Source: Nitrosopumilus sp. (GTDB lineage: Archaea > Thermoproteota > Nitrososphaeria > Nitrososphaerales > Nitrosopumilaceae). From it: a DNA stretch of 64,000 bases. Below are positions 22,056 to 63,976 of the stretch, piece after piece. Position 1 is the stretch's first letter. Every line of letters starts with the position of its first letter. The stretch spans positions 1,376,001 to 1,440,000 of the forward strand of contig OZ241981.1 of the NCBI GenBank assembly GCA_965204345.1, written 5' to 3'. The position numbers and the translations under genes are program-made. The notes under the pieces are model-generated. The model was not told the origin of the DNA and made no database searches. It saw only the letters and a program-made list of their open reading frames with translations.

Positions 22056-24749
22056 CTATGTTTTCACTTTGAATAAGGCAGCTTCACCTTCTCTAATGAC
22101 TAATTGCAATTGAGGATTATCCTCAAAGAGGGCTATTCGTTCAGAAGTACTTATGTGAAGAGCTGGAAATACTGGTAGAAGATGCTGTCGTGCCGCTTGT
22201 TGTCTGTTTTGGGGATCACCGCCAGTAATTAACACATATTCAATACCATACTTGTCCAATATTTCCATCATTTTCATGTCTCCGGGATGGTGTAATACAA
22301 GGTTAGCCTCATATGCTCTCTCTTTTAGAAATGTATCATCTGGCACAACATTGGTGCTTATTCTTTTCCACATTTCTCTGTTATTAGTTATATCAAATAT
22401 CTTTATTGATGAAAGCCACATTCCTTCAGTAGTTCTATCCTCAAGGATGGTTGTATTTGAATCAAGATTGTCATTCATCCAACCCATAACTTTTAATTCA
22501 TTGCTTGTAGGTAAATATCCTAGCAAACCATCTTTATACTCGTATGAAATATGAGTATCAAGACTTGGAATTAGTGCAATAAAAACCAACGAGCAAATCA
22601 CTATGGACAAGACTGATTTTGAACGTAATGAAATTTCGCGTTTGTTAAACCTAGTTGCAAGTTTATCAAAAATATCAACCCCTGCTAAAATTATTCCTAT
22701 TTGAGAGATGATAGCTCCTAGTAAAACAAGTCTGTCAGGATACATAAACCAGAAAAGATTCTCATAAATTACTTTATTTGATATTGTTCCAAACACTAGG
22801 GAAAACATTACAATCAAAAATAAACTAAACTCTCGATTGGATTTAAACAACCAAGTTGCAGAAAGAACCCCCCCTAGTAATAAAATAAAATAAGGAAAAT
22901 ATATAGAATCTATGTTGTATATGTCCATCTCCTCTAGAAAGATCCACCAAAAGTCGACCCTAGCACCATGTTCCTGAATCAATTCATCTGCAAAATAAAC
23001 CAGTGATGCGCCTGATGTTACTACCAAAATAATTAACGCCAATCGTAAAGAAGTAAGCATATAGTTTTTTATCTTAAATTTCCCGACTCGCAGTCCATTT
23101 GTTTTGGAGTTTATGGGGGATTTTAAGAGTATTAATTTAATAATTATAAACAAAACAAAGGGAACGATCATGATAGTATATGTGATAAATATTACAACTG
23201 ACAATAGCGAATAAATAATAAAATTAGAATTATTTTTATTATTAATAACTATGCTGATAAAAAGCAAAAGTATGCAAGTAAATGTAGCAAATACAAAAGT
23301 GCCCCCTTCTAATGGAGTAAGTAGTACATCATCAAATAGTATAAAATAACCTACTTCATTTCCTGGAATAAAAAACAATGCTCCAAATGCAATGCTTGCC
23401 AAGTAATACGATTTGGTTTTTTTGTATATTATTGAAAAACAGATGGGCGGCAAGAGTGCAACAATTGTTGCTGTGACGGCATATTGGGATATTGGCAGCA
23501 TGACGTTTGTAATCAAAGAAAAAAATGCAGTCAAAGCATGAAATCCCTGAGGATAAACTGTCATTCCATATGGCAAATCAAAAAATGGCCAATTATTGTT
23601 AAACACACTCGTATGATACATTATAAATTGCGAAGCGTGACCATGGTATTGCGGATCATGAATCGGCGGCCAGCTCATATTTTCTGCAATTATAAAAAAG
23701 TGAGTCAGTGACAGAATTATGAGTATGCCTGCAATCAGATTTGGAAGAACTTTTTCATTTTTAATTTCAGACAGAATTTTAGCTCTGTCTCTGAAAATCA
23801 AGTAAGAGCCAACCATCATAAACGAAAAGAAGGCTGTCAGAACAGTAGTCTGTGTAAAGTGAAGCATTGCCAGAAAAATCGCCAAAAGAATCAGCAATAC
23901 CAAGCCAAAGGCAGAGTACAGGGAAAAATTAATTACAAATCCAAAATTCAGCTTGTATCGGATAATTTTTAATAGAAAATACCCCATAATAACTGAAGAC
24001 GACAAATAAACAATCATGGATGTCAGTATCTCGTTTTTAAAATTCGACCTGTCTGAACCTATTTTGCTGTCAAATAATCCAGGCACTACCTCTGCATTTG
24101 CAATGTTCAGGCGCTGTGCTAGCTGTGCGTGATATTCTACATCAAATAATCCAGGCACTACCTCTGCATCTGTAATGAGCGTGGTCTGGGAATAAGAGTC
24201 CCCTCCGTTTACAAATGTAATTCTAAGAGACTTGACATTGCCAGGATCAAAGCCAGGTTTATTTTGAACGTAATTGGAGGGATCTACAATAACTTTTGCC
24301 CAAGTGCCATCTTCTAAACCAAACCACTGTGGCAAATTCCAAAAAGGACGCTGTATATCATTTGCATCAACCATGATCAAAAATGCATTAGCCCTCCATG
24401 CTTCAGGAGTACTTTTATTTATTCCAGCCACATTTTCAAGATTCATCCAAAATCGTAATCCTTGGCCCGTAGACAGATCCACAGGCTTGGAAAAACGGCA
24501 CTCAAGAACTGCTGTTTCTGTGGCATCACTGCTGGAAAAATAACTATAGGTAAAATCGCTATCATCATCATCATCATCACTATTCATATTCAGAGATTTG
24601 TCCAAAAAACTAGACTCTGAATCCCACGTACATTTATTCTCACTGTCAGACTCGAAAACATAAAAATCATGAAGATTTTCGGCAAATACAATTGATGGCA
24701 ACGCACATAATACCAACAAAACAAGTGCTATCCCACTAACAAGAAACAA
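22056..24749 (-). CDS. Multi-TM GT-C-like glycosyltransferase with N-terminal carbohydrate-binding-like domain, copy 1 (carries a 24-aa insertion)
   Basis: WPPxxDPQYH and YPQGFH loop motifs, more than 12 TM helices, C-terminal W..NLDSNTTIL-D / LDKYGIEYVL domain. Confidence 0.7.
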   Translation of the reverse strand: MFLVSGIALVLLVLCALPSIVFAENLHDFYVFESDSENKCTWDSESSFLDKSLNMNSDDDDDDSDFTYSYFSSSDATETAVLECRFSKPVDLSTGQGLRFWMNLENVAGINKSTPEAWRANAFLIMVDANDIQRPFWNLPQWFGLEDGTWAKVIVDPSNYVQNKPGFDPGNVKSLRITFVNGGDSYSQTTLITDAEVVPGLFDVEYHAQLAQRLNIANAEVVPGLFDSKIGSDRSNFKNEILTSMIVYLSSSVIMGYFLLKIIRYKLNFGFVINFSLYSAFGLVLLILLAIFLAMLHFTQTTVLTAFFSFMMVGSYLIFRDRAKILSEIKNEKVLPNLIAGILIILSLTHFFIIAENMSWPPIHDPQYHGHASQFIMYHTSVFNNNWPFFDLPYGMTVYPQGFHALTAFFSLITNVMLPISQYAVTATIVALLPPICFSIIYKKTKSYYLASIAFGALFFIPGNEVGYFILFDDVLLTPLEGGTFVFATFTCILLLFISIVINNKNNSNFIIYSLLSVVIFITYTIMIVPFVLFIIIKLILLKSPINSKTNGLRVGKFKIKNYMLTSLRLALIILVVTSGASLVYFADELIQEHGARVDFWWIFLEEMDIYNIDSIYFPYFILLLGGVLSATWLFKSNREFSLFLIVMFSLVFGTISNKVIYENLFWFMYPDRLVLLGAIISQIGIILAGVDIFDKLATRFNKREISLRSKSVLSIVICSLVFIALIPSLDTHISYEYKDGLLGYLPTSNELKVMGWMNDNLDSNTTILEDRTTEGMWLSSIKIFDITNNREMWKRISTNVVPDDTFLKERAYEANLVLHHPGDMKMMEILDKYGIEYVLITGGDPQNRQQAARQHLLPVFPALHISTSERIALFEDNPQLQLVIREGEAALFKVKT

Positions 24750-24799: not shown

Positions 24800-25843
24800 T
24801 CTATTGTACGAAAATTATGTCCGCCTAAGCTCAGGCTTCAGACAAGGGATTATTACCGCATATACCGATCACGAATAATGAAGAGAACCAGACTAAAAGG
24901 AGATCAGACCAGATACATCATACGGCAGCATCAAAAGGGCACAGCTGCAGCAGTCTGGCCCAGACCATGCAGGTCAGCGCAAGACACGTCAGACGCATAT
25001 GGGCAGCCTACCGCAAGACCGGAAGAATACTCCCCCACAGAAAGGCAGAAAGACCCAGAAAGATACCATCACCTGAGGATGTACGTCGTGTTCTTAAGAC
25101 ATATGATGATATTCATGCAGTAGTGCGCACGACTCGCCACCTCAGAAAGTCATCTCATATAAGCTACCATACGGTATACCAAATAATGAAATCCAACGGA
25201 CTGGCCAGACTGTCTCCTGAAAAATCCAAGAAGAGGAAATACGTCAGATACGAGCGACTGTATTCCAATGCAATGTGGCATGTGGACTGGCCAAAATGAA
25301 GGATCCACGCCTGAAAGGACTGCAACTTGTGGCATATCTGGATGATGCATCAAGATGCATAACGGGATTCGAGATATTTGAGTGCCACAAGCCAGAACAC
25401 TGTAGCCGTTTTGCGCAAGGCTATCAAGTCATTTGGCACGCCAGGCCAGATACTTTCAGACAATGGAGCCTAGTTCACATCCCGGAACCGCGGTGTACCT
25501 GCCAAGGGATGGAAGCCCACCAACCCTGTTTGAGTCAGAAGCCCTGGAGAGGTGTATTGTCCTGATTGACTCGCGCTCTCACCACCACCACCCGCAGACC
25601 AACGGCAAGATTGAAAGATTCTTCAAGACACTTGAGGATGAGATTGTACACTTTAAGACGATGGAGGAGTTCATCGACTTTTACAATGAGGATAGGCTGC
25701 ATTTTTCTCTGGACATAGAGAACTGCCAGATGCTCCTGATGGCATTTAAGGCCAAAAAGGTTCCTGATGCGATCAGGAAAAACAACCAAAAATGGATGGA
25801 GGCAGATATGAATGACTAGCGGACATAATTATCATATAATACA
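24800..25843 (+). mobile_element. IS481-family element, variant A copy 1, frameshifted transposase
   Basis: 24-bp imperfect TIRs TCTATTGTACGAAAATTATGTCCG / TGTATTATATGATAATTATGTCCG; fragments WHVD, LDDASR, SDNG, PQTNGKIERF. Confidence 0.9.
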
Positions 25844-26058: not shown

Positions 26059-27102
26059 TGTATTATATGATAATTATGTCCGCTAGTCATTCATATCTGC
26101 CTCCATCCATTTTTGGTTGTTTTTCCTGATCGCATCAGGAACCTTTTTGGCCTTAAATGCCATCAGGAGCATCTGGCAGTTCTCTATGTCCAGAGAAAAA
26201 TGCAGCCTATCCTCATTGTAAAAGTCGATGAACTCCTCCATCGTCTTAAAGTGTACAATCTCATCCTCAAGTGTCTTGAAGAATCTTTCAATCTTGCCGT
26301 TGGTCTGCGGGTGGTGGTGGTGAGAGCGCGAGTCAATCAGGACAATACACCTCTCCAGGGCTTCTGACTCAAACAGGGTTGGTGGGCTTCCATCCCTTGG
26401 CAGGTACACCGCGGTTCCGGGATGTGAACTAGGCTCCATTGTCTGAAAGTATCTGGCCTGGCGTGCCAAATGACTTGATAGCCTTGCGCAAAACGGCTAC
26501 AGTGTTCTGGCTTGTGGCACTCAAATATCTCGAATCCCGTTATGCATCTTGATGCATCATCCAGATATGCCACAAGTTGCAGTCCTTTCAGGCGTGGATC
26601 CTTCATTTTGGCCAGTCCACATGCCACATTGCATTGGAATACAGTCGCTCGTATCTGACGTATTTCCTCTTCTTGGATTTTTCAGGAGACAGTCTGGCCA
26701 GTCCGTTGGATTTCATTATTTGGTATACCGTATGGTAGCTTATATGAGATGACTTTCTGAGGTGGCGAGTCGTGCGCACTACTGCATGAATATCATCATA
26801 TGTCTTAAGAACACGACGTACATCCTCAGGTGATGGTATCTTTCTGGGTCTTTCTGCCTTTCTGTGGGGGAGTATTCTTCCGGTCTTGCGGTAGGCTGCC
26901 CATATGCGTCTGACGTGTCTTGCGCTGACCTGCATGGTCTGGGCCAGACTGCTGCAGCTGTGCCCTTTTGATGCTGCCGTATGATGTATCTGGTCTGATC
27001 TCCTTTTAGTCTGGTTCTCTTCATTATTCGTGATCGGTATATGCGGTAATAATCCCTTGTCTGAAGCCTGAGCTTAGGCGGACATAATTTTCGTACAATA
27101 GA
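26059..27102 (-). mobile_element. IS481-family element, variant A copy 2 (mirror of copy 1)
   Basis: Identical ORF translations on the opposite strand; same TIRs; mirror coordinate sum 51902. Confidence 0.9.
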
Positions 27103-27152
27103 ACAGAACCTCATAACAAAAAAGTAAATAAACAAGAAAATTTTAGAATCTG

Positions 27153-29771
27153 TTGTTTCTTGTTAGTGGGATAGCACTTGTTTTGTTGGTATTATGTGCG
27201 TTGCCATCAATTGTATTTGCCGAAAATCTTCATGATTTTTATGTTTTCGAGTCTGACAGTGAGAATAAATGTACGTGGGATTCAGAGTCTAGTTTTTTGG
27301 ACAAATCTCTGAATATGAATAGTGATGATGATGATGATGATAGCGATTTTACCTATAGTTATTTTTCCAGCAGTGATGCCACAGAAACAGCAGTTCTTGA
27401 GTGCCGTTTTTCCAAGCCTGTGGATCTGTCTACGGGCCAAGGATTACGATTTTGGATGAATCTTGAAAATGTGGCTGGAATAAATAAAAGTACTCCTGAA
27501 GCATGGAGGGCTAATGCATTTTTGATCATGGTTGATGCAAATGATATACAGCGTCTTTTTTGGAATTTGCCACAGTGGTTTGGTTTAGAAGATGGCACTT
27601 GGGCAAAAGTTATTGTAGATCCCTCCAATTACGTTCAAAATAAACCTGGCTTTGATCCTGGCAATGTCAAGTCTCTTAGAATTATATTTGTAAACGGAGG
27701 GGACTCTTATTCCCAGACCACGCTCATTACAGATGCAGAGGTAGTGCCTGAATTATTTGACAGCAAAATAGGTTCAGACAGGTCGAATTTTAAAAACGAG
27801 ATACTGACATCCATGATTGTTTATTTGTCGTCTTCAGTTATTATGGGGTATTTTCTATTAAAAATTATCCGATACAAGCTGAATTTTGGATTTGTAATTA
27901 ATTTTTCCCTGTACTCTGCCTTTGGCTTGGTATTGCTGATTCTTTTGGCGATTTTTCTGGCAATGCTTCACTTTACACAGACTACTGTTCTGACAGCCTT
28001 CTTTTCGTTTATGATGGTTGGCTCTTACTTGATTTTCAGAGACAGAGCTAAAATTCTGTCTGAAATTAAAAATGAAAAAGTTCTTCCAAATCTGATTGCA
28101 GGCATACTCATAATTCTGTCACTGACTCACTTTTTTATAATTGCAGAAAATATGAGCTGGCCGCCTGTTTTTGATCCGCAATACCATGGTCACGCTTCGC
28201 AATTTATAATGTATCATACGAGTGTGTTTAACAATAATTGGCCATTTTTTGATTTGCCATATGGAATGACAGTTTATCCTCAGGGATTTCATGCTTTGAC
28301 TGCATTTTTTTCTTTGATTACAAACGTCATGCTGCCAATATCCCAATATGCCGTCACAGCAACAATTGTTGCACTCTTGCCGCCCATCTGTTTTTCAATA
28401 ATATACAAAAAAACCAAATCGTATTACTTGGCAAGCATTGCATTTGGAGCATTGTTTTTTATTCCAGGAAATGAAGTAGGTTATTTTGTAATTTCTCATG
28501 ATGTACTACTTACTCCATTATCTACAGGAACTTTTGTATTTGCTACATTTACTTGCATACTTTTGCTTTTTATCAGCATAGTTATTAATAATAAAAATAA
28601 TTCTAATTTTATTATTTATTCGCTATTGTCAGTTGTAATATTTATCACATATACTATCATGATCGTTCCCTTTGTTTTGTTTATAATTATTAAATTAATA
28701 CTCTTAAAATCCCCCATAAACTCCAAAACAAATGGACTGCGAGTCGGGAAATTTAAGATAAAAAACTATATGCTTATTTTACGATTGGCGTTAATTATTT
28801 TGGTAGTAACATCAGGCGCATCACTGGTTTATTTTGCAGATGAATTGCAGAAGATAAATAATATTCCGATCACCACTTACTGGCTATTATTTGAGAATAT
28901 GGACATATACAACATAGATTCTATATATTTTCCTTATTTTATTTTATTACTAGGGGGGGTTCTTTCTGCAACTTGGTTGTTTAAATCCAATCGAGAGTTT
29001 AGTTTATTTTTGATTGTAATGTTTTCCCTAGTGTTTGGAACAATATCAAATAAAGTAATTTATGAGAATCTTTTCTGGTTTATGTATCCTGACAGACTTG
29101 TTTTACTAGGAGCTATCATCTCTCAAATAGGAATAATTTTAGCAGGGGTTGATATTTTTGATAAACTTGCAACTAGGTTTAACAAACGCGAAATTTCATT
29201 ACGTTCAAAATCAGTCTTGTCCATAGCGATTTGCTCGTTGGTTTTTATTGCACTAACTCCAAGTCTTGATACTCATATTTCATACGAGTATGACGATGAT
29301 TTGCTAGGATATTTACCTACAAGCAATGAATTAAAAGTTATGGGTTGGATGAATGACAATCTTGATTCAAATACAACCATCCTTCAGGATAGAACTGGTG
29401 AAGGAATGTGGCTTTCATCAATAAAGATATTTGATATAACTAATAACAGAGAAATGTGGAGAAGAATACACAGTAGTGTTGTGTTAGATGATACATTTCT
29501 AAAAGAGAGAGCATATGAGGCTAACCTTGTATTACACCATCCCGGAGACATGAAAATGATGGAAATATTGGACAAGTATGGTATTGAATATGTGTTGATT
29601 ACTGGCGGTAATCCGAAAGACAGACAACGATCGGATGCGTACCCGCTTCTACCAGTATTTCCAGCTCTTCACATAAGTACTTCTGAACGAATAGCCCTCT
29701 TTGAGGATAATCCTCAATTGCAATTAGTCATTAGAGAAGGTGAAGCTGCCTTATTCAAAGTGAAAACATAG
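27153..29771 (+). CDS. GT-C-like membrane glycosyltransferase, copy 2
   Basis: Near-identical to copy 1 except for short divergent loop patches. Confidence 0.7.
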   Translation: MFLVSGIALVLLVLCALPSIVFAENLHDFYVFESDSENKCTWDSESSFLDKSLNMNSDDDDDDSDFTYSYFSSSDATETAVLECRFSKPVDLSTGQGLRFWMNLENVAGINKSTPEAWRANAFLIMVDANDIQRLFWNLPQWFGLEDGTWAKVIVDPSNYVQNKPGFDPGNVKSLRIIFVNGGDSYSQTTLITDAEVVPELFDSKIGSDRSNFKNEILTSMIVYLSSSVIMGYFLLKIIRYKLNFGFVINFSLYSAFGLVLLILLAIFLAMLHFTQTTVLTAFFSFMMVGSYLIFRDRAKILSEIKNEKVLPNLIAGILIILSLTHFFIIAENMSWPPVFDPQYHGHASQFIMYHTSVFNNNWPFFDLPYGMTVYPQGFHALTAFFSLITNVMLPISQYAVTATIVALLPPICFSIIYKKTKSYYLASIAFGALFFIPGNEVGYFVISHDVLLTPLSTGTFVFATFTCILLLFISIVINNKNNSNFIIYSLLSVVIFITYTIMIVPFVLFIIIKLILLKSPINSKTNGLRVGKFKIKNYMLILRLALIILVVTSGASLVYFADELQKINNIPITTYWLLFENMDIYNIDSIYFPYFILLLGGVLSATWLFKSNREFSLFLIVMFSLVFGTISNKVIYENLFWFMYPDRLVLLGAIISQIGIILAGVDIFDKLATRFNKREISLRSKSVLSIAICSLVFIALTPSLDTHISYEYDDDLLGYLPTSNELKVMGWMNDNLDSNTTILQDRTGEGMWLSSIKIFDITNNREMWRRIHSSVVLDDTFLKERAYEANLVLHHPGDMKMMEILDKYGIEYVLITGGNPKDRQRSDAYPLLPVFPALHISTSERIALFEDNPQLQLVIREGEAALFKVKT

Positions 29772-29869: not shown

Positions 29870-31171
29870 TGTATTATATGAAAATCATATCCGCTAGTCA
29901 TTCATGTCTGCCTCCATCCATTTTTGGTTGCTTTTTCTGATCGCATCAGGAACCTTTTTGGCCTTAAATGCCATCAGAGGCACCTGGCAGTTCTCTATGT
30001 CCAGAGAAAAATGCAGTCTATCCTTATTGTAAAAATCGATGAACTCCCCCATCGTCTTAAAGTGTACAATCTCATCCTCAAGTGTCCTGAAGAATCTCTC
30101 AATCTTGCCGTTGGCCTGCGGGTGGTGGTGGTGGTGGTGGTGGTGGTGGTGGTGGTGGTGGTGGTGGTGGTGGTGGTGGTGGTGGTGGTGGTGGTGGTGG
30201 TGGTGGTGGTGGTGGTGGTGGTGGTGGTGGTGGTGGTGGTGGTGGTGGTGGTGGTGGTGGTGGTGGTGGTGGTGGTGGTGGTGGTGGTGGTGGTGGTGGT
30301 GGTGGTGGTGGTGGTGGGAGCGTGAGTCAATCAGGGCAATACTCCTCTCCAGAGCTTCTTCCTCAAACATGGTGAGCCTCTATCCCTTGGCAGGTATACC
30401 GCGGTTTCGGGATGTGAACTGGGCGCCGTTGTCTGAAAGTATCTGGCCTGGCGTGCCAAATGACTTGATAGTCTTGCGCAAAACGGCTACAGTGTTCTGG
30501 CTTGTGGCACTATCAAATATCCCGAATCCCGTTATGCATCTTGATGCATCATCCAGATATGCCACAAGTTGCAATCCTTTTAGGCGTGGATCCTTCATTT
30601 TGGCCAGTCCATATCCCACATTGCATTGGAATACAGTCACTCGTATCTGACGTACTTTCTCTTCTTGGATTTTTCAGGAGACAGCTTAACTAGTCCATTG
30701 GATTTCATTATTTGGTAATGCTGTATGGTATCTTATATGAGATGACTTTCTGAGGTGGCGAGCTGTGTGCACTACTGCATGAATATCATCATATGTCTTA
30801 AGAACACGACGTTTAAGTGGTGACGGCATCGTCTAGGGCTTCGAGCCTGCATGAATATCATCATATGTCTTAAGAACACGACGTACATCCTCAGGTGATG
30901 GTATCTTTCTGGGTCTTTCTGCCTTTCTGTGGGGGAGTATTCTTCCGGTCTTGCGGTAGGCTGCCCATATGCGTCTGACGTGTCTTGCGCTGACCTGCAT
31001 GGTCTGGGCCAGAACAGATGCTGCACCTGTGCCCTTTTGATGCTGCCGTATGATGTATCTAATCTGAACTTCTTTTAGTCTGGTTCTCTTCATTATTCGT
31101 GATCTGTATATGCGGTAATAATCCCTTGCCTGAAGCCTGAGCTTAGGCGGACATAATTTTCGTACAATAGA
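29870..31171 (-). mobile_element. IS481-family element, variant B copy 1, pseudogenised, with (CAC)65 expansion
   Basis: TIRs at 29870 and 31171; transposase fragments; 72-bp duplication-insertion at 30775-30884. Confidence 0.9.
30121..30315. repeat. (GGT)65 microsatellite
   Basis: 195 bp of perfect trinucleotide repeat. Confidence 0.95.
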
Positions 31172-31279
31172 TTTGCGAAACCAGATGAAAGACTAAAAAC
31201 GTTAAAACTGGATGATGATGATCCTGCTCATGCAAGAGATGTTAATTAATATGAAGTATTTTCAGCAGTACTAACACAC

Positions 31280-32296
31280 ATGATTGTTGGTAGATCACCA
31301 CTAAGAATCAGTTTTGCAGGGGGAGGAACTGATCTTGAAGAATATTACAAAAGATATACAGGTCATACCATTAGTTTCACAATCAGCAAAAATACACATG
31401 TCGTCATACAAAAAAGAGAGGATGAAAAATTCCAGGGATTTTCTCCAGATTTTCAAACGCATCATCCCCCAGAAAAATATTCAAAAGTAAGGAAAAATCT
31501 TCAGGGTCATGAAATAATCATAGCAGTTTTAAAGGAATTAAACGTTACAAAAGGAATAAACGCATTTTTTTGCAGTGATGTAAACGCGGGTTCAGGGCTA
31601 GGTGCATCATCATCACTTGCAACAAATTTAGTTAATACCGTACTTTTTATGGAAGAGCAAAAATGGACAAAAAAGAGAATTGCAGAGAAGGCATATGAGA
31701 TAGCACATAATGTTTTAAAATGGAACTTGGGAAAACAAGATGAGTTTTCTTCATCTTATGGTGGATTGAATCTCTTTGAATTTACTAAAGATAATGTCAA
31801 GACTGAAAGACTTTTGTTGAACAAATCTACCTTCAGAGAGATTCAAGATAATTCGTTGTTGTTTTCATTAGAAAGAAAGCGACAGCCCTCTAGCACGATC
31901 TTAAAAGACCAAGCAGAAAAAACTAAGAAGAATGATCCCCGTACAATAAATGCCCTGCACAATACAAATCAATTTGCTTTAGAATTGCGGGACTGCTTAA
32001 AAAGAAACGATCTAACGGCTTTTAGTGAAATACTTAGAAAAGGATGGGATGAAAAAAAGAAATTCGCACGCCAGATTACAGATAAGTCAATTGATGATGT
32101 GGTTAAACGTGCAACGACCCTAGGAGTTCAAGGAATGAAAATTACGGGGGCAGGTGGGGGCGGGCACATCTTTGCATATGCAGATTCAGGCAAACATAAA
32201 AAAATTATCTCCAATCTAGAAAAAATAGGTATAAAACATATACCATTTCATTATACATTCTCTGGAACAGTTGCTTTTAATACAAGTTTTTTATAG
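31280..32296 (+). CDS. hddA: D-glycero-alpha-D-manno-heptose-7-phosphate kinase (GHMP family), copy 1
   Basis: PLRISFAGGGTD, GSGLGASSS, GKQD, KITGAGGGG. Confidence 0.88.
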   Translation: MIVGRSPLRISFAGGGTDLEEYYKRYTGHTISFTISKNTHVVIQKREDEKFQGFSPDFQTHHPPEKYSKVRKNLQGHEIIIAVLKELNVTKGINAFFCSDVNAGSGLGASSSLATNLVNTVLFMEEQKWTKKRIAEKAYEIAHNVLKWNLGKQDEFSSSYGGLNLFEFTKDNVKTERLLLNKSTFREIQDNSLLFSLERKRQPSSTILKDQAEKTKKNDPRTINALHNTNQFALELRDCLKRNDLTAFSEILRKGWDEKKKFARQITDKSIDDVVKRATTLGVQGMKITGAGGGGHIFAYADSGKHKKIISNLEKIGIKHIPFHYTFSGTVAFNTSFL

Positions 32297-32317
32297 ATTT
32301 TTTTGGTGAGGTAAGAT

Positions 32318-32905
32318 ATGAATGACATCGTAAAGGATTATTTAATTCATCAAGAAGAATGTCTTGAAAAAATAAAGACAGATTTTTTTTCAGACAAAAT
32401 TAAGAAAATTTTTGGGATTTTGATTAACGCACGTGATAATGGCAATCGCGTGTTTGTTATGGGCAATGGCGGAAGTGCATCTACAGCATCTCACTTTGTT
32501 GCGGATTTATTAAAAACAAGTATTGTGAAAAATTCGAAAAGATTTCAAGCGTTATCTTTGTCAGATAATATTCCAGTCATGTTGGCATGGGCAAATGATT
32601 TTTCTTACGATGACATATTTGTAGGACAGTTAGAAAATTTCTTGGAGGAAAAAGACATAGTGGTTGGAATTAGCAGCAGTGGAAATTCAAACAACGTAAT
32701 CAGAGCAGCCAAATATGCAAACGACAAAGGTGCGCACTGTATTGCATTGACAGGCAAAGATGGAGGCAAATTATCAAATATATCTGCCACAAATTTAACA
32801 GTTCCAAGTAATGACATTCTAACTATCGAGACTATGCATTTGATGACATGTCATTTATTAATCGCAATGATTAGAGAATCAGGTACGCCTTTCTACAAAT
32901 ATTAA
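32318..32905 (+). CDS. gmhA: Sedoheptulose-7-phosphate isomerase (SIS), copy 1
   Basis: GNGGSASTASH, AND, GISSSGNS, LTG, ETMH. Confidence 0.92.
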   Translation: MNDIVKDYLIHQEECLEKIKTDFFSDKIKKIFGILINARDNGNRVFVMGNGGSASTASHFVADLLKTSIVKNSKRFQALSLSDNIPVMLAWANDFSYDDIFVGQLENFLEEKDIVVGISSSGNSNNVIRAAKYANDKGAHCIALTGKDGGKLSNISATNLTVPSNDILTIETMHLMTCHLLIAMIRESGTPFYKY

Positions 32906-32906
32906 A

Positions 32907-33395
32907 TTGCAAAAGAAAGCCATATTTTTAGATAGGGACGGAGTCATTAACCAAAACAGAAAAGACTACGTCAAAGAGTTATCAGAATTTGAAATATTTG
33001 ACTGGGTAGGAGAATCAGTCAAACTGTTCAAGGATGCAGGATATTTGGTGATAATAATAACAAATCAATCAGCTATAGGAAGGAGATTACTCACACATGA
33101 AGAATTAAAAAAAATACATGATTGCCTTGAGAACTATCTTAAAACATTCAAGACAAAGATTGATGCAATATATTATTGCCCACATACGCCAGAAGACAAT
33201 TGTGATTGTAGAAAACCCAAGCCCGGGTTGTTGCTTGCTGCAATACAGGATTTTCAAGTTGATTTGTCAAACAGTTGGATGGTAGGAGATTCGACTGCAG
33301 ATATCATGGCCGCAACGTCAGCTGGATGCAGATCATACATGATAAAAGAGAATTTAACATTGCTTGATATTGCAATACATATATGTAAAGGATAA
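32907..33395 (+). CDS. gmhB: Heptose-1,7-bisphosphate phosphatase, copy 1
   Basis: FLDRDGVIN, TNQS, CPH..CDCRKPKPG, MVGD. Confidence 0.92.
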   Translation: MQKKAIFLDRDGVINQNRKDYVKELSEFEIFDWVGESVKLFKDAGYLVIIITNQSAIGRRLLTHEELKKIHDCLENYLKTFKTKIDAIYYCPHTPEDNCDCRKPKPGLLLAAIQDFQVDLSNSWMVGDSTADIMAATSAGCRSYMIKENLTLLDIAIHICKG

Positions 33396-33638
33396 GATTT
33401 TGAATTGTGGTTAATTAAGGACATCGTCAGACATGCAGTTACGGATAGATAAAGAGAGGAAGAAGTAAGGAGCGAGTAAATAAATCAATAAATAACGGAT
33501 TGATTGATTGTGTAAATTAATTTCCTTTATTTCAGATAAGATGGGATTATAAATTCTGGCTATAAATTAGACATCAAGTATCATCAACATATAAATTATT
33601 TTTTGTCTTTTGATTTTTTGTTCTTCTTCTTGTTCTTT

Positions 33639-34769
33639 TGTATTATATGAAAATCATATCCGCTAGTCATTCATGTCTGCCTCCATCCATTTTTGGTTGC
33701 TTTTTCTGATCGCATCAGGAACCTTTTTGGCCTTAAATGCCATCAGAGGCACCTGGCAGTTCTCTATGTCCAGAGAAAAATGCAGTCTATCCTTATTGTA
33801 AAAATCGATGAACTCCCCCATCGTCTTAAAGTGTACAATCTCATCCTCAAGTGTCCTGAAGAATCTCTCAATCTTGCCGTTGGCCTGCGGGTGGTGGTGG
33901 TGGTGGTGGTGGTGGGAGCGTGAGTCAATCAGGGCAATACTCCTCTCCAGAGCTTCTTCCTCAAACATGGTGAGCCTCTATCCCTTGGCAGGTATACCGC
34001 GGTTTCGGGATGTGAACTGGGCGCCGTTGTCTGAAAGTATCTGGCCTGGCGTGCCAAATGACTTGATAGTCTTGCGCAAAACGGCTACAGTGTTCTGGCT
34101 TGTGGCACTATCAAATATCCCGAATCCCGTTATGCATCTTGATGCATCATCCAGATATGCCACAAGTTGCAATCCTTTTAGGCGTGGATCCTTCATTTTG
34201 GCCAGTCCATATCCCACATTGCATTGGAATACAGTCACTCGTATCTGACGTACTTTCTCTTCTTGGATTTTTCAGGAGACAGCTTAACTAGTCCATTGGA
34301 TTTCATTATTTGGTAATGCTGTATGGTATCTTATATGAGATGACTTTCTGAGGTGGCGAGCTGTGTGCACTACTGCATGAATATCATCATATGTCTTAAG
34401 AACACGACGTTTAAGTGGTGACGGCATCGTCTAGGGCTTCGAGCCTGCATGAATATCATCATATGTCTTAAGAACACGACGTACATCCTCAGGTGATGGT
34501 ATCTTTCTGGGTCTTTCTGCCTTTCTGTGGGGGAGTATTCTTCCGGTCTTGCGGTAGGCTGCCCATATGCGTCTGACGTGTCTTGCGCTGACCTGCATGG
34601 TCTGGGCCAGAACAGATGCTGCACCTGTGCCCTTTTGATGCTGCCGTATGATGTATCTAATCTGAACTTCTTTTAGTCTGGTTCTCTTCATTATTCGTGA
34701 TCTGTATATGCGGTAATAATCCCTTGCCTGAAGCCTGAGCTTAGGCGGACATAATTTTCGTACAATAGA
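33639..34769 (-). mobile_element. IS481-family element, variant B copy 2, (CAC)8
   Basis: TIRs; same sequence as B1 apart from microsatellite length. Confidence 0.9.
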
Positions 34770-34877
34770 TTTGCGAAACCAGATGAAAGACTAAAAACGT
34801 TAAAACTGGATGATGATGATCCTGCTCATGCAAGAGATGTTAATTAATATGAAGTATTTTCAGCAGTACTAACACAC

Positions 34878-35894
34878 ATGATTGTTGGTAGATCACCACT
34901 AAGAATCAGTTTTGCAGGGGGAGGAACTGATCTTGAAGAATATTACAAAAGATATACAGGTCATACCATTAGTTTCACAATCAGCAAAAATACACATGTC
35001 GTCATACAAAAAAGAGAGGATGAAAAATTCCAGGGATTTTCTCCAGATTTTCAAACGCATCATCCCCCAGAAAAATATTCAAAAGTAAGGAAAAATCTTC
35101 AGGGTCATGAAATAATCATAGCAGTTTTAAAGGAATTAAACGTTACAAAAGGAATAAACGCATTTTTTTGCAGTGATGTAAACGCGGGTTCAGGGCTAGG
35201 TGCATCATCATCACTTGCAACAAATTTAGTTAATACCGTACTTTTTATGGAAGAGCAAAAATGGACAAAAAAGAGAATTGCAGAGAAGGCATATGAGATA
35301 GCACATAATGTTTTAAAATGGAACTTGGGAAAACAAGATGAGTTTTCTTCATCTTATGGTGGATTGAATCTCTTTGAATTTACTAAAGATAATGTCAAGA
35401 CTGAAAGACTTTTGTTGAACAAATCTACCTTCAGAGAGATTCAAGATAATTCGTTGTTGTTTTCATTAGAAAGAAAGCGACAGCCCTCTAGCACGATCTT
35501 AAAAGACCAAGCAGAAAAAACTAAGAAGAATGATCCCCGTACAATAAATGCCCTGCACAATACAAATCAATTTGCTTTAGAATTGCGGGACTGCTTAAAA
35601 AGAAACGATCTAACGGCTTTTAGTGAAATACTTAGAAAAGGATGGGATGAAAAAAAGAAATTCGCACGCCAGATTACAGATAAGTCAATTGATGATGTGG
35701 TTAAACGTGCAACGACCCTAGGAGTTCAAGGAATGAAAATTACGGGGGCAGGTGGGGGCGGGCACATCTTTGCATATGCAGATTCAGGCAAACATAAAAA
35801 AATTATCTCCAATCTAGAAAAAATAGGTATAAAACATATACCATTTCATTATACATTCTCTGGAACAGTTGCTTTTAATACAAGTTTTTTATAG
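34878..35894 (+). CDS. hddA: Heptose-7-phosphate kinase, copy 2
   Basis: Identical translation, offset 3598 bp. Confidence 0.88.
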   Translation: MIVGRSPLRISFAGGGTDLEEYYKRYTGHTISFTISKNTHVVIQKREDEKFQGFSPDFQTHHPPEKYSKVRKNLQGHEIIIAVLKELNVTKGINAFFCSDVNAGSGLGASSSLATNLVNTVLFMEEQKWTKKRIAEKAYEIAHNVLKWNLGKQDEFSSSYGGLNLFEFTKDNVKTERLLLNKSTFREIQDNSLLFSLERKRQPSSTILKDQAEKTKKNDPRTINALHNTNQFALELRDCLKRNDLTAFSEILRKGWDEKKKFARQITDKSIDDVVKRATTLGVQGMKITGAGGGGHIFAYADSGKHKKIISNLEKIGIKHIPFHYTFSGTVAFNTSFL

Positions 35895-35915
35895 ATTTTT
35901 TTGGTGAGGTAAGAT

Positions 35916-36503: not shown

Positions 36504-36504
36504 A

Positions 36505-36993: not shown

Positions 36994-37236
36994 GATTTTG
37001 AATTGTGGTTAATTAAGGACATCGTCAGACATGCAGTTACGGATAGATAAAGAGAGGAAGAAGTAAGGAGCGAGTAAATAAATCAATAAATAACGGATTG
37101 ATTGATTGTGTAAATTAATTTCCTTTATTTCAGATAAGATGGGATTATAAATTCTGGCTATAAATTAGACATCAAGTATCATCAACATATAAATTATTTT
37201 TTGTCTTTTGATTTTTTGTTCTTCTTCTTGTTCTTT

Positions 37237-48775: not shown

Positions 48776-48973
48776 GGCATTACACAGATGTCAGGATTTT
48801 GCAACAACAGACAGATATTTGAGACTTTGTCAAGCAAGTACCGTAGCCTGTTTTTCATTTTTAAGTCTTTTTAGCCTTCTTCCCGTGTCCTGCCGTTTTC
48901 ATTGTATCGGTGATGCAAAATTCATGTTTGACAAAATAGAGGCTGGTATAATTCTGGTTGCATCATGGGGTTT

Positions 48974-51133: not shown

Positions 51134-51179
51134 AATTATTTAATTATAATGTAATGACTGTCTCTCCAGTCCTGCCATA

Positions 51180-56249
<5,070 letters not shown>

Positions 56250-56282
56250 AAATCATGTCTCCCAGTCTGTTTTGTGCAAAAA

Positions 56283-57158
56283 TCATATCTCCCAGTCTAT
56301 TTTGCGCCCCAGCATTATTTCCAGCTTTGTCTTTTCGTCCAGAAATATCTCCCTGAGTTGCGACATGTCAAATTCCGAACTTTTCGGACGCTTTTCCTTT
56401 TTCATCAAAAACATCTCAGCCATCTTTATTATCCTGTCAGTTGGGAGTATTCTGACTACTATCTTCAAAAGTGTCTTGTTTTTTATTACTGCTTTTTGCA
56501 ATCTTCCCCCCGGCACTGCGTACCTGTTATAAACTTCATCCTTAAAATCATGCAATCCGTCTATCTCCAAGAATTCCAAAACCTCCCTTACTGTTTTTTT
56601 GGTATCTTTGATGAATTCCTCAAAAATTATGATTTTTATCTGTTTTTTATCAAACTTGCCGTAATAATTTCCTATATGCTGAGAATACATGCCTGTTTTT
56701 ACAATTGAATGTATGTCTTTTGACAATGATCTTATGCCTGCCTTGACTACCTCCTCAAACGGCAGAATGTCTAATGCATACTTTATCTGATACAGATAAT
56801 CTGAAATTAGCCTCTCATTTGGATTTCTTAAGATCATAATTATCTTGGCATTGGGATTCTTTGCATGTATAGCTCCCGGGGAATCGGGGTCCATAAAGTA
56901 CGTTACGCTGCCTTCCCCTATTATCTGATCCTCTCTTGCGTGCGCAAATAATGACAGGTATTCTTTTTCGGTTTTTATTGGACTTACAATCAGATTCGTC
57001 TGCCGTTTAATGTTTGGCGAAAAATAATGCGACTCTTTGCGCTTTGGCATAAATATTTTGGGATTCTGTTTCAAATACTTGTACAGTGATGTAGTTCCTG
57101 ACCTTGGAGCTCCGACAATAAAGAAATCTGGAAACCGCATGTCCAAAAATATTTTCAA
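56283..57158 (-). CDS. PAPS-dependent sulfotransferase, intact copy B
   Basis: PDFFIVGAPRSGTTSLY, KESHYF, ILRNP.ER.IS. Confidence 0.92.
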   Translation of the reverse strand: MKIFLDMRFPDFFIVGAPRSGTTSLYKYLKQNPKIFMPKRKESHYFSPNIKRQTNLIVSPIKTEKEYLSLFAHAREDQIIGEGSVTYFMDPDSPGAIHAKNPNAKIIMILRNPNERLISDYLYQIKYALDILPFEEVVKAGIRSLSKDIHSIVKTGMYSQHIGNYYGKFDKKQIKIIIFEEFIKDTKKTVREVLEFLEIDGLHDFKDEVYNRYAVPGGRLQKAVIKNKTLLKIVVRILPTDRIIKMAEMFLMKKEKRPKSSEFDMSQLREIFLDEKTKLEIMLGRKIDWEI

Positions 57159-57357: not shown

Positions 57358-58593
57358 TTATTTCTCTCTCTCCATACAGCTGTTTATCACCTTCATCAAT
57401 CGCTTGCCAATCATCTCTATTGTTAGGTTCTCTAGAACGTACCTTCTTCCGTTTTGACCCAATTCCTCTGCAAGCTTCTCGTCTTTTACCAATTTCAAAA
57501 TCAAATCCGAAACAGTCTTGGGATCCCTTGATGATGTTACAATGCCGCTTTTTGTCCTGTTTACATAGCGTTTTGATTCCCCCTTTGAGATACAAAAGAT
57601 TGGCCTTCCAATCATTTGATAGTCCAATGTCTTTGTAATCAATTCATAGTCAAATCCCCTGACCGGACTTAGGGGCAATAAAAAAATATCCGCGCTGTTT
57701 AGTATCTCGTTATACTTTTCAAATTCGACAAATTTTGTATCTATTTTGACATTTGTAATTTTCTGCTGCTGAACCTGCTGTTTTAGATAATCCTCCCTGT
57801 CTCCCTCGCCCCTGATTATGAACTGTATCGGATACTGCTCTAAAATCTTGGCAGCCTGCAGTATTGTATCAAAATCATATCCGATACTTAGTGCGCCGGC
57901 ATACATTAGAATTTTTTTCCTTCCACTTGGTCCGTCTTGGTGTTGCTCATCCCTTTTGTTTTCATTAGTCCTGAATTTTTCCGTATCTACGCCATGCTCA
58001 ATAACTGTAATTTTTTCTCTTTTGATCTTATATTTTGACTCCAATACGTCTACAGAACCTTCACTTAGTGGCACCACTGCACACGAATTGTCATATGATT
58101 TTTGGGCAATATGGTCTAAAATCTTTCTGAAGATCCTCGACTTGACATATCCCAAGTCATACCATACTTCTGGCCACATGTCATCGACATTACGAATATA
58201 TTTTTTTTTCAGAAAAAAACTGTACACTGCAGCAGGAAATGAAACAAAAAAGCTCGGGTTTGATGCAAAAATTATGTCAGTATCGCGAAATTTCTGCATT
58301 ACCAACAGTGATGAGAGACAAAATGAAAGATGAATTATTACGCGTTTTAAAATGGACGAAAAAGCTAACTTGGGAACCCATGTTCTGTATATTGTCATGC
58401 CGTCAATCTGTTCTTTTGCAACTAGCTTGCCCCTGTATTTTTTTGGAATGTCCCCCTTTGGATAGTGTGGAAACGCAGATACGACAGTTACGTTGTTGCC
58501 TTGGTTCTTTAATGCCTTAGCTGCATTGTGTGCTCTAGTCGATCCGCCGCCTATGTCTGGCCAGAACAGCTGTGCTATGATTAAAACATTCAT
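57358..58593 (-). CDS. GT4 glycosyltransferase, copy B
   Basis: Near-identical to copy A with clustered substitutions. Confidence 0.9.
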   Translation of the reverse strand: MNVLIIAQLFWPDIGGGSTRAHNAAKALKNQGNNVTVVSAFPHYPKGDIPKKYRGKLVAKEQIDGMTIYRTWVPKLAFSSILKRVIIHLSFCLSSLLVMQKFRDTDIIFASNPSFFVSFPAAVYSFFLKKKYIRNVDDMWPEVWYDLGYVKSRIFRKILDHIAQKSYDNSCAVVPLSEGSVDVLESKYKIKREKITVIEHGVDTEKFRTNENKRDEQHQDGPSGRKKILMYAGALSIGYDFDTILQAAKILEQYPIQFIIRGEGDREDYLKQQVQQQKITNVKIDTKFVEFEKYNEILNSADIFLLPLSPVRGFDYELITKTLDYQMIGRPIFCISKGESKRYVNRTKSGIVTSSRDPKTVSDLILKLVKDEKLAEELGQNGRRYVLENLTIEMIGKRLMKVINSCMEREK

Positions 58594-61312: not shown

Positions 61313-61354
61313 GTACAAAGAAAAAGTAAATAAACAAGAAAATTTTAGAATCTG

Positions 61355-63976
61355 TTGTTTCTTGTTAGTGGGATAGCACTTGTTTTGTTGGTATTATGTG
61401 CGTTGCCATCAATTGTATTTGCCGAAAATCTTCATGATTTTTATGTTTTCGAGTCTGACAGTGAGAATAAATGTACGTGGGATTCAGAGTCTAGTTTTTT
61501 GGACAAATCTCTGAATATGAATAGTGATGATGATGATGATGATAGCGATTTTACCTATAGTTATTTTTCCAGCAGTGATGCCACAGAAACAGCAGTTCTT
61601 GAGTGCCGTTTTTCCAAGCCTGTGGATCTGTCTACGGGCCAAGGATTACGATTTTGGATGAATCTTGAAAATGTGGCTGGAATAAATAAAAGTACTCCTG
61701 AAGCATGGAGGGCTAATGCATTTTTGATCATGGTTGATGCAAATGATATACAGCGTCTTTTTTGGAATTTGCCACAGTGGTTTGGTTTAGAAGATGGCAC
61801 TTGGGCAAAAGTTATTGTAGATCCCTCCAATTACGTTCAAAATAAACCTGGCTTTGATCCTGGCAATGTCAAGTCTCTTAGAATTACATTTGTAAACGGA
61901 GGGGACTCTTATTCCCAGACCACGCTCATTACAGATGCAGAGGTAGTGCCTGGATTATTTGACAGCAAAATAGGTTCAGACAGGTCGAATTTTAAAAACG
62001 AGATACTGACATCCATGATTGTTTATTTGTCGTCTTCAGTTATTATGGGGTATTTTCTATTAAAAATTATCCGATACAAGCTGAATTTTGGATTTGTAAT
62101 TAATTTTTCCCTGTACTCTGCCTTTGGCTTGGTATTGCTGATTCTTTTGGCGATTTTTCTGGCAATGCTTCACTTTACACAGACTACTGTTCTGACAGCC
62201 TTCTTTTCGTTTATGATGGTTGGCTCTTACTTGATTTTCAGAGACAGAGCTAAAATTCTGTCTGAAATTAAAAATGAAAAAGTTCTTCCAAATCTGATTG
62301 CAGGCATACTCATAATTCTGTCACTGATTCACTTTTTTATAATTGCAGAAAATATGAGCTGGCCGCCGATTCATGATCCGCAATACCATGGTCACGCTTC
62401 GCAATTTATAATGTATCATACGAGTGTGTTTAACAATAATTGGCCATTTTTTGATTTGCCATATGGAATGACAGTTTATCCTCAGGGATTTCATGCTTTG
62501 ACTGCATTTTTTTCTTTGATTACAAACGTCATGCTGCCAATATCCCAATATGCCGTCACAGTAACAATTGTTGCACTCTTGCCGCCCATCTGTTTTTCAA
62601 TAATATACAAAAAAACCAAATCGTATTACTTGGCAAGCATTGCATTTGGAGCATTGTTTTTTATTCCAGGAAATGAAGTAGGTTATTTTATACTATTTCA
62701 TGATGTACTACTTACTCCATTAGAAGGGGGCACTTTTGTATTTGCTACATTTACTTGCATACTTTTGCTTTTTATCAGCATAGTTATTAATAATAAAAAT
62801 AATTCTAATTTTATTATTTATTCGCTATTGTCAGTTGTAATATTTATCACATATGCTGTCATGATCGTTCCCTTTGTTTTGTTTATAATTATTAAATTAA
62901 TACTCTTAAAATCCCCCATAAACTCCAAAACAAATGGACTGCGAGTCGGGAAATTTAAGATAAAAAACTATATGCTTACTTCTTTACGATTGGCGATAAT
63001 TATTTTATTAGTAACATTAGGTGCACCACTGGTTTATTTTGCAGATGAATTGATTCAGGAACATGGTGCTAGGGTCGACTTTTGGTGGATCCTTCTAGAG
63101 GATATGGACATATACAACATAGATTCTATATATTTTCCTTATTTTGTTTTATTACTAGGGGGGGTTCTTTCTGCAATTTGGTTGTTTAAATCCAATCGAG
63201 AGTTTAGTTTATTTTTGATTGTAATGTTTTCCCTAGTGTTTGGAGCAATATCAAATAAAGTAATTTATGAGAATCTTTTCTGGTTTATGTATCCTGTCAG
63301 ACTTGTTTTACTAGGAGCTATCATCTCTCAAATAGGAATAATTTTAGCAGGGGTTGATATTTTTGATAAACTTGTAACTAGGTTTAACAAACGCAAAATT
63401 TCATTACGTTCAAAATCAGTCTTCTCCATAGCGATTTGCTCGTTGGTTTTTATTGCACTAATTCCAAGTCTTGATACTCATATTTCATACGAGTATAAAG
63501 ATAATTTGCTAGGATATTTACCTACAAGCAATGAATTAAAAGTGATGGGTTGGATGAATGACAATCTTGATTCAAATACAACCATCCTTGAGGATAGAAC
63601 TAGTGAAGGAATGTGGCTTTCATCAATAAAGATATTTGATATAACTAATAACAGAGAAATGTGGAGAAAAATAAGCGCCAATGTTGTGCCAGATGATACA
63701 TTTCTAAAAGAGAGAGCATATGAGGCTAACCTTGTATTACACCATCCCGGAGACATGAAAATGATGGAAATATTGGACAAGTATGGTATTGAATATGTGT
63801 TAATTACTGGCGGTGATCCCCAAAACAGACAACAAGCGGCACGACAGCATCTTCTACCAGTATTTCCAGCTCTTCACATAAGTACTTCTGAACGAATAGC
63901 CCTCTTTGAGGATAATCCTCAATTGCAATTAGTCATTAGAGAAGGTGAAGCTGCCTTATTCAAAGTGAAAACATAG
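61355..63976 (+). CDS. GT-C-like membrane glycosyltransferase, copy 3
   Basis: Near-identical to copies 1 and 2. Confidence 0.7.
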   Translation: MFLVSGIALVLLVLCALPSIVFAENLHDFYVFESDSENKCTWDSESSFLDKSLNMNSDDDDDDSDFTYSYFSSSDATETAVLECRFSKPVDLSTGQGLRFWMNLENVAGINKSTPEAWRANAFLIMVDANDIQRLFWNLPQWFGLEDGTWAKVIVDPSNYVQNKPGFDPGNVKSLRITFVNGGDSYSQTTLITDAEVVPGLFDSKIGSDRSNFKNEILTSMIVYLSSSVIMGYFLLKIIRYKLNFGFVINFSLYSAFGLVLLILLAIFLAMLHFTQTTVLTAFFSFMMVGSYLIFRDRAKILSEIKNEKVLPNLIAGILIILSLIHFFIIAENMSWPPIHDPQYHGHASQFIMYHTSVFNNNWPFFDLPYGMTVYPQGFHALTAFFSLITNVMLPISQYAVTVTIVALLPPICFSIIYKKTKSYYLASIAFGALFFIPGNEVGYFILFHDVLLTPLEGGTFVFATFTCILLLFISIVINNKNNSNFIIYSLLSVVIFITYAVMIVPFVLFIIIKLILLKSPINSKTNGLRVGKFKIKNYMLTSLRLAIIILLVTLGAPLVYFADELIQEHGARVDFWWILLEDMDIYNIDSIYFPYFVLLLGGVLSAIWLFKSNREFSLFLIVMFSLVFGAISNKVIYENLFWFMYPVRLVLLGAIISQIGIILAGVDIFDKLVTRFNKRKISLRSKSVFSIAICSLVFIALIPSLDTHISYEYKDNLLGYLPTSNELKVMGWMNDNLDSNTTILEDRTSEGMWLSSIKIFDITNNREMWRKISANVVPDDTFLKERAYEANLVLHHPGDMKMMEILDKYGIEYVLITGGDPQNRQQAARQHLLPVFPALHISTSERIALFEDNPQLQLVIREGEAALFKVKT

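Follow-up and report, generated by a model that had tools for sequence, protein, structure and literature searches.

The 64,000-nt stretch of DNA analysed here (positions 1,376,001 to 1,440,000 of contig OZ241981.1; hereafter, the window) carries three paralogous genes for membrane proteins of the Pfam family DUF6541. The three open reading frames (ORFs) lie where an initial annotation of this DNA had placed them, and all of them are intact:

22056-24749, minus strand: copy 1, intact ORF of 897 aa for a DUF6541 membrane protein with a predicted GT-C (type C glycosyltransferase) fold, patch type I, Pfam PF20176 match of 54.3 bits
27153-29771, plus strand: copy 2, intact ORF of 872 aa, patch type II, TTG start
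61355-63976, plus strand: copy 3, intact ORF of 873 aa, patch type I, distinct scaffold changes; the copy used for modelling

When the three coding regions are aligned as nucleotides, 101 columns carry substitutions; copy 1 has an in-frame insertion of 72 nt, and copy 2 an indel of 3 nt. Substitutions separating copies 1 and 2 are crowded into five patches, which in copy 1 numbering are codons 362-364 (A), 470-483 (B), 591-607 (C), 795-803 (D) and 845-856 (E), or 55 codons and 165 nt altogether. These 165 of the 2619 aligned nt (6.3% of the gene) hold 66 of the 79 substitutions (binomial test, 6.6e-66), and the densest 60-nt interval contains 27 differences, against a maximum of 11 across 10000 permutations. 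The patches are located as follows:

23658-23666, minus strand: patch A of copy 1, codons 362-364, immediately N-terminal to the family-invariant Asp365
23301-23342, minus strand: patch B of copy 1, codons 470-483
22929-22979, minus strand: patch C of copy 1, codons 591-607, site of the densest 60-nt interval
22341-22367, minus strand: patch D of copy 1, codons 795-803, in the C-terminal domain
22182-22217, minus strand: patch E of copy 1, codons 845-856, in the C-terminal domain, a loop modelled with low confidence
28164-28172, plus strand: patch A of copy 2
28488-28529, plus strand: patch B of copy 2
28848-28898, plus strand: patch C of copy 2
29460-29486, plus strand: patch D of copy 2
29610-29645, plus strand: patch E of copy 2
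62366-62374, plus strand: patch A of copy 3
62690-62731, plus strand: patch B of copy 3
63053-63103, plus strand: patch C of copy 3
63665-63691, plus strand: patch D of copy 3
63815-63850, plus strand: patch E of copy 3

All of the residue pairs quoted earlier as distinguishing copy 1 from copy 2 are present in the translations, namely PIHD/PVFD, ILFDD..LEGG/VISHD..LSTG, IQEHGARVDFWWIFLEE/QKINNIPITTYWLLFEN, KRISTN/RRIHSS and DPQNRQQAARQH/NPKDRQRSDAYP. Between copies 1 and 2, 40% of the patch DNA differs (66/165 nt), compared with 13 of 2454 nt in the rest of the gene, which we call the scaffold; only one of the 1373 nt compared within nt 672-2149 differs, and the first 580 nt of the gene contain two differences. 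Copy 3, which had been said to share the patches of copy 1, indeed differs from it at only 6 of 165 patch nt (e.g., D473H, F604L and E607D). We therefore speak of two deep patch types, type I in copies 1 and 3 and type II in copy 2 and in three further paralogs described below. Patch lengths are constant between the types, and the internal conserved residues W602, E606 and D474-L480 are retained, which argues that the patches are homologous and do not represent replaced DNA. At 44%, the G+C content of type I patches exceeds that of type II patches (37%) and that of the gene (35%); this could reflect their amino-acid composition or a foreign origin.

The initial annotation had also held that no single tree fits the three copies, and the site patterns do conflict. 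In the patches, copy 2 is the odd one out at 63 sites and copies 1 and 3 at three sites each; in the scaffold, copy 3 is odd at 19 sites, copy 2 at nine and copy 1 at four (copy 2-odd versus copy 3-odd, patches against scaffold: Fisher's exact test, 2e-10). Judged by the scaffold, the nearest pair is copies 1 and 2, with 1/1373 differences versus 17/1376 for copies 1 and 3, whereas by the patches it is copies 1 and 3, with 6/165 versus the 66/165 that separate copies 1 and 2. As for the scaffold changes attributed to copy 3 as its own, YAVM, LGAP and YPVR are confirmed (at codons 525-526, 579/582 and 672 in copy 1 numbering), but V427, I632, V698, K705 and K796 are found in paralogs outside the window as well.

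These additional paralogs came from a search of 5.8 billion proteins, which returned four clusters at 90% identity, all located on one contig of 2,038,535 bp; the same set contained no shorter related predicted proteins. One member, P0005, equals copy 2 apart from the first codon (the TTG start, translated as L). The other three, P0004, P0006 and P0007, lie outside the window, are 91-93% identical to copy 3 and carry their differences concentrated at the same five patches. The paralog family comprises at least six copies, and the four clusters total 11 member sequences, which represent either more paralogs or alternative gene calls. Copies 1, 2 and 3 were compared as DNA, and P0004, P0006 and P0007 as proteins. 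The three out-of-window paralogs are of type II, and within this type finer, graded variants exist; at position 601, five different residues occur among the six copies. The six paralogs offer 47 parsimony-informative columns; 260 of the 1081 possible pairs, and 63 of the 120 pairs outside the patches, cannot be reconciled with any single tree. In addition, the insertion of copy 1 recurs in P0007, a paralog of the opposite patch type (II):

24098-24169, minus strand: in-frame insertion of 72 nt in copy 1, within the linker joining the N-terminal domain to the first core helix, with a 36-nt direct repeat at its bounds

Taken together, the conflicting site patterns, the incompatible column pairs and the shared insertion require recombination or gene conversion among the copies. 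The two types also differ in their likeness to relatives: summed over the eight closest homologues, type II scores 47 matches and type I 14, so type I is the derived state. At the 37 differing patch positions, no homologue among the 55 aligned agrees with type I more than five times, and on these grounds we reject a known relative as the source of type I patches. Silent donor cassettes were likewise rejected, since blastn (word size 9) and tblastn detected none in the window.

The flanks of the genes are mosaic too. Directly upstream, the three copies share one short segment:

61319-61354, plus strand: upstream segment common to copies 1, 2 and 3 (coordinates of copy 3), about 36 nt, A/T-rich, with TAAATAAA about 23-30 nt before the TTG

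This segment is probably the core promoter of a leaderless transcript. According to the flank comparison, the upstream identity of copy 3 with copies 1 and 2 is limited to these ~36 nt before the start. At the 3' side, copy 3 had been said to carry the flank of copy 2; the two are identical at 24/24 visible nt, and the argument stands on these 24 nt, a thin basis that results from the window stopping at 64000. The 3' flank of copy 1 diverges 3 nt past the stop codon in an ungapped comparison, or about a dozen nt past it with a 2-nt gap allowed.

All three copies match DUF6541 (PF20176) at 52.6-58.4 bits (cut-off 29), covering model positions 32/33-645 of 646; no other Pfam family was matched by them at E up to 1, and no NCBIfam match was obtained. 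A DUF6541 match is also found in 17 of 61 aligned relatives. Judging from an exhaustive search of 1.84 billion representatives, which gave 96 relatives at E <=0.001 with the nearest 31% identical, the family is rare and the paralogs have no close known relatives. A literature search returned no paper naming DUF6541. Among Atlas clusters, the nearest come from archaea (Bathyarchaeota and Thermoplasmatota). The DUF6541 proteins are probably of archaeal type and their host probably an archaeon. A profile search of reference genome contigs with the paralog alignment revealed no relative among 218 pattern matches. A second scan of reference genomes gave one homologous locus, in a metagenome-assembled genome of Bathyarchaeota, where the homologue ends a same-strand run of genes for GT2, an ORF without Pfam match, GT2, an epimerase, GT4, GT4 and a methyltransferase.

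Sequence comparison with solved structures, by phmmer with a single sequence and by a 61-sequence profile against PDB, yielded no meaningful similarity. An AlphaFold2 model of copy 3 was built from the 61-sequence alignment (predicted local distance difference test, pLDDT, 83.2; predicted template-modelling score, pTM, 0.84). Its top Foldseek matches in PDB are AftA, STT3, DPY19, PglB, AglB and ALG12 (E 1e-6 to 3e-3, probability 1.00), the best E belonging to AftA 8if8 (1e-6), with target-normalised template-modelling (TM) scores of just 0.28-0.51. The label GT-C-like, given initially from the sequence, is borne out by these matches, and in the model the polytopic membrane domain has a GT-C fold. 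The N-terminal beta-sandwich resembles the CBM11 modules 1v0a and 2lro (Foldseek TM 0.51-0.54); its BLASTP match to a neighbouring CBM11-repeat protein is marginal (E 0.006, a single comparison). Overall, the proteins would begin with a signal anchor and a CBM11-like beta-sandwich on the extracytoplasmic side, continue with a polytopic GT-C domain that bears a D-x-x-x-H motif in a long outer loop, and end in an extracytoplasmic C-terminal domain. The D-x-x-x-H motif proved real: Asp365 (copy 1 numbering; D341 in copy 3) is invariant in 61/61 aligned members, and about 89% of the 55 members other than the paralogs have His369. At the Asp a helix begins, within a loop of ~59 aa on the predicted extracytoplasmic side. 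Trp757 is invariant in the 61-sequence alignment as well, and the family-conserved residues D365, H369, G483, Y524, R673, W757, N761, D771, P822 and Y838 are kept in 6/6 copies. A WWDYG-type motif in the C-terminal domain is the mark of the oligosaccharyltransferases AglB, STT3 and PglB. Since WWD is absent from all six paralogs and no STT3 Pfam match was found, we reject an oligosaccharyltransferase identity of this kind.

We further mapped the variation onto a predicted topology, derived from the helices of the AlphaFold2 model and the positive-inside rule. All five patches fall on the predicted extracytoplasmic side: patch A comprises the two residues preceding Asp365, B and C lie in outer loops of the membrane domain, and D and E belong to the C-terminal domain. 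Among the paralogs, variable positions number 49/294 in the extracytoplasmic core, 18/309 in the membrane, 1/57 on the cytoplasmic side and 5/192 in the N-terminal domain (outside versus the rest: Fisher's exact test, 2e-6). In the wider family, the cytoplasmic loops, with an entropy of 3.19 bits, vary no less than the patch columns, yet they are near-invariant among the paralogs.

Substitution rates contrast just as sharply. For copies 1 and 2, the Nei-Gojobori method gave a non-synonymous rate (dN) of 0.63 and a synonymous rate (dS) of 0.41 in the patches, i.e., dN/dS of about 1.5, and dN of 0.0058 and dS of 0.0019 in the scaffold. Even codons that encode the same residue in both copies follow this division, with synonymous differences at 3/18 of them inside the patches versus 1/806 outside (Fisher's exact test, 3.5e-5). 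Overall, changes are nearly all non-synonymous: 26 versus 3 synonymous between copies 1 and 3, and 11 versus 1 in the scaffold of copies 1 and 2. The low scaffold dS beside a far higher patch dS and the mosaicism among paralogs are both features of concerted evolution with selected islands of divergence. The patch substitutions between copies 1 and 2 comprise all 12 types, 28 transitions and 38 transversions, show no adenine bias and are distributed over the three codon positions as 28:21:17. Such a spectrum is unlike the adenine-directed mutagenesis of diversity-generating retroelements (DGRs). No extra copy of the patch regions, including a template repeat, exists in the window, and no reverse transcriptase was found among the scanned window ORFs (90 aa or longer); we reject the idea that the patches are DGR targets on the basis of these three observations.

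Between copies 1 and 2, the similarity continues well beyond the genes, into remnants of an insertion sequence (IS):

24800-25843, plus strand: decayed IS-like element upstream of copy 1, fragmented ORFs matching HTH_21 and rve_3
26059-27102, minus strand: inverted copy of this element, upstream of copy 2

Together with the 5' ends of the two genes, these elements form near-perfect inverted arms of 1702 nt (24142-25843 and 26059-27760) around a spacer of 215 nt. At least six copies or fragments of the decayed IS-like element are present in the window, at 24800-25843, 26059-27102, 29870-31171, 33639-34769, 37237-38367 and 46220-47239. As the IS copies each lie directly upstream of a duplicated gene block, they were probably substrates for segmental duplications. 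The window is also rich in long repeats of 100% identity, and recombination at the locus is favoured because of the many IS copies and these repeats. Neighbours of the three copies include genes for GDP-mannose dehydratase and epimerase, GT4 glycosyltransferases, sulfotransferases, a duplicated GHMP-kinase/SIS/HAD trio and a CBM11-repeat protein. Going by this gene content, the copies sit in a surface-glycan locus with many IS remnants and segmental duplications.

Such evidence leads us to favour, with a probability of roughly 0.55, a scenario of concerted evolution by intragenomic recombination, combined with diversifying selection that holds five outer-face segments apart and so produces isoenzymes with different specificity. 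In this scenario, recurrent recombination or gene conversion between the copies would homogenise promoter, scaffold and N-terminal domain at the nucleotide level. Diversifying selection would meanwhile keep the five short extracytoplasmic segments different, as "islands of divergence". The outcome would likely be a set of isoenzymes built on one chassis, with varied acceptor or lipid-linked donor specificity, and hence a wider surface-glycan repertoire. The low overall divergence interrupted by sharp peaks matches both theory and eukaryotic cases as they are presented in section 3.2 of PMC3924837, and therefore favours concerted evolution. In this account, gene conversion is the presumed homogenising process and selection the presumed keeper of the patches, and the proteins would be active glycosyltransferases whose specificity differs from copy to copy.

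Several observations weigh against this scenario. Gene-wide tests for dN/dS >1 were not significant (p 0.09-0.24), and together with a patch dN/dS of only about 1.5 this leaves positive selection undemonstrated. Copies 1 and 2 are also essentially identical in the IS and flank that lie between them, which fits a very recent duplication equally well. The Fisher value for sidedness assumes independent sites although the variable sites are clustered, and the topology behind it is model-derived. Throughout the wider family, the variability of patch columns exceeds that of the remaining outer positions (2.95 versus 2.44 bits), and low constraint therefore contributes. Proximity of variable clusters to family-conserved residues in the linear sequence does not exceed chance, as it applies to 6/23 clusters and this was reached by 432/656 circular shifts. 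Finally, to judge from the sequences, the two patch types are not symmetrical old alleles, since type II resembles the relatives more.

One may instead suppose that the patches are mutational in origin: the copies would be very recent duplicates, and a local mechanism would later have rewritten their patches (short conversions templated on diverged donors located elsewhere, or else error-prone repair or targeted hypermutation), which would then not be relics of an older divergence spared by homogenisation. The 1702-nt arms and the 5'-most 580 nt of the gene, where just two positions differ, speak for this, as do the near-saturated divergence of the patches, synonymous sites included, the almost even use of codon positions, the raised G+C content of type I patches and the derived state of this type. 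Still, we consider it rather unlikely, because neither blastn nor tblastn revealed a donor or partial copy in the window, none appeared among the shorter proteins of the 5.8-billion set, and the 55 homologues match type I at 5/37 positions at most. The retained lengths and inner residues point to homologous sequence, not replaced DNA; the 12 substitution types without adenine bias and the lack of a reverse transcriptase among the scanned ORFs speak against a DGR; and the graded steps between type II variants fit gradual divergence. It is also conceivable, though improbable, that the five patches are targets of a programmed, non-DGR diversification that lets the host maintain a repertoire of glycosyltransferase specificities built on an unchanging chassis. 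This might work through mismatch processing of heteroduplexes between inverted or dispersed copies, which would homogenise paired DNA and fail on strongly diverged bubbles, or through a dedicated system for patch exchange or hypermutation.

A different role for the patches, as exposed surface that, in the manner of variable bacterial surface antigens, escapes viruses, toxins or other antagonists and has no bearing on enzyme specificity, is suggested by the predicted extracytoplasmic position of all five and by the combination of conserved frame, hypervariable loops and inter-locus recombination, which resembles Neisseria opa genes as outlined in parts of PMC5020929 and PMC13183285. Nonetheless, the most exposed part of the protein, the 192-aa N-terminal beta-sandwich, hardly varies; the ~36-nt upstream region is the same in all three copies; an in-frame poly-Asp run is the sole simple repeat noticed in them, and no frame-shifting repeat able to switch a copy on or off was seen; and the simultaneous presence of all versions would not hide a receptor. 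We find this role quite unlikely. Neutral decay of redundant copies, focused on tolerant loops, would account for the non-synonymous excess everywhere, with dN/dS near or above 1, and for the variability of patch columns in the wider family. It cannot, however, yield 40% divergence in 165 nt beside 1/1373 nt, all ORFs are intact with their family-conserved residues, and the cytoplasmic loops, equally unconstrained in the wider family, vary at a single position; relaxed constraint is thus a very unlikely explanation. Least credible of all is an assembly artefact, in which paralogs or mosaics would stem from mis-joined repeats or mixed strains. Long identical repeats throughout the window are admittedly hard to assemble, but all four family clusters are reported from one 2,038,535-bp contig, with three in NCBI and ENA, all differences are in frame, the flanks differ between copies, and the patches follow a consistent two-type pattern.

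Returning to concerted evolution under diversifying selection, we would like to compare the DUF6541 copies with known systems. Like the GT-C enzymes AftA, STT3/AglB/PglB, DPY19 and ALG12, which are their top Foldseek matches, they combine a polytopic membrane domain with an extracytoplasmic domain at the C-terminus, and their genes lie in a context of glycan biosynthesis; their family-invariant Asp, in a long loop predicted to be on the outer side, would be a candidate counterpart of the GT-C catalytic acid. They differ in lacking meaningful sequence similarity to any solved structure, in reaching TM scores of only 0.28-0.51 and in having neither a WWD motif nor an STT3 Pfam match; they also add an N-terminal CBM11-like domain and have three predicted helices before the helix that enters the Asp loop. 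As far as is known, the AglB paralogues of Archaeoglobus fulgidus have diverged along their entire length, whereas the DUF6541 scaffolds are 99-100% identical in DNA, with differences confined to the five patches. What the two cases have in common is the presence of several GT-C enzymes of one family in an archaeal genome, three in A. fulgidus according to the portion of PMC3703281 concerned with them.

Duplicates evolving under gene conversion, such as the red/green opsins and RHCE/RHD, show divergence peaks that are treated, along with the theory of Innan and of Teshima and Innan, in section 3.2 of PMC3924837. The likeness to the opsin and RH pairs, as that section describes them, lies in the low overall divergence and in sharp islands around selected positions that include synonymous sites. 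In contrast to these eukaryotic pairs, the present case is prokaryotic, involves at least six copies and has five islands, some of just 2-3 codons, with nucleotide divergence up to 40%. Opa proteins are small outer-membrane adhesins that are under immune selection and undergo phase variation by a coding repeat. The DUF6541 copies, by contrast, have an enzyme-like GT-C fold in a probable archaeon, and no phase-variation repeat was seen in them. The resemblance to the opa genes is that multiple loci exist in a genome, that a conserved frame in the membrane carries hypervariable extracellular loops, and that the loci recombine with one another, to follow the relevant parts of PMC5020929, PMC13183285 and PMC2265424. 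As in DGR systems, hypervariability is localised in what would be a ligand-binding region of an otherwise constant protein; unlike in DGRs, the window offers no reverse transcriptase or template repeat, and substitutions affect all four bases.

To go by the sections cited above, this kind of process is already known from opsins, RH genes and Opa-like families, and multiple GT-C paralogs per archaeon are known as well. In a broader literature search, none of the matches listed describes a comparable case by its title or the start of its abstract. The unusual aspect is the combination: a prokaryotic, probably archaeal set of at least six uncharacterised GT-C-fold copies with near-zero scaffold divergence and five islands reaching 40%, one of which abuts the invariant Asp. 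The six near-isogenic copies, differing almost solely in five outer-face segments, amount to a natural mutational scan of a family without assigned function. Should the patches govern which substrates are used, they would pinpoint what determines specificity in an uncharacterised archaeal GT-C family and supply ready-made chimeras for testing. If our scenario is true, the locus would represent an unusually sharp prokaryotic case of divergence islands maintained against gene conversion, and also an IS-rich glycan locus that diversifies surface glycans by copying and editing one enzyme chassis.

Finally, we would also like to describe other features of the window. Two GT4 genes, at 38444-39700 (plus strand) and 57358-58593 (minus strand), are about 95% identical, with 15 synonymous versus 25 non-synonymous codon differences. 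These differences are spread more widely than those of the DUF6541 copies and are densest in the first ~90 codons, a milder patchy divergence that serves as a local control. A tandem repeat at 30292-37787, with a period of 3598 nt and 100% identity, holds the GHMP kinase/SIS isomerase/HAD phosphatase trio at 31280-33395 and again at 34878-36993; these three genes resemble a heptose-type module for sugar activation. A perfect inverted repeat of 4104 nt (41350-45453 and 47254-51357) encodes a 719-aa polytopic membrane ORF without Pfam match (P0103) and a GDP-mannose 4,6-dehydratase, and its 1.8-kb centre contains an epimerase gene and an IS copy. On the minus strand, 51180-56249 is occupied by a 1689-aa ORF with five 495-nt tandem repeats of 100% identity and CBM_11 matches; this CBM11-repeat protein is a possible surface protein and a candidate acceptor for the surrounding glycosylation genes. 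Two sulfotransferase genes, one truncated (40285-40896, 203 aa) and one full-length (56283-57158, 291 aa), lie in an inverted repeat whose arms, 40143-40912 and 56267-57036, are 100% identical. The window begins with coding sequence (3-1475) for the specificity domain at the C-terminus of a Type ISP restriction enzyme, and an ORF for an HNH endonuclease lies upstream of the glycan locus at 18060-19478.

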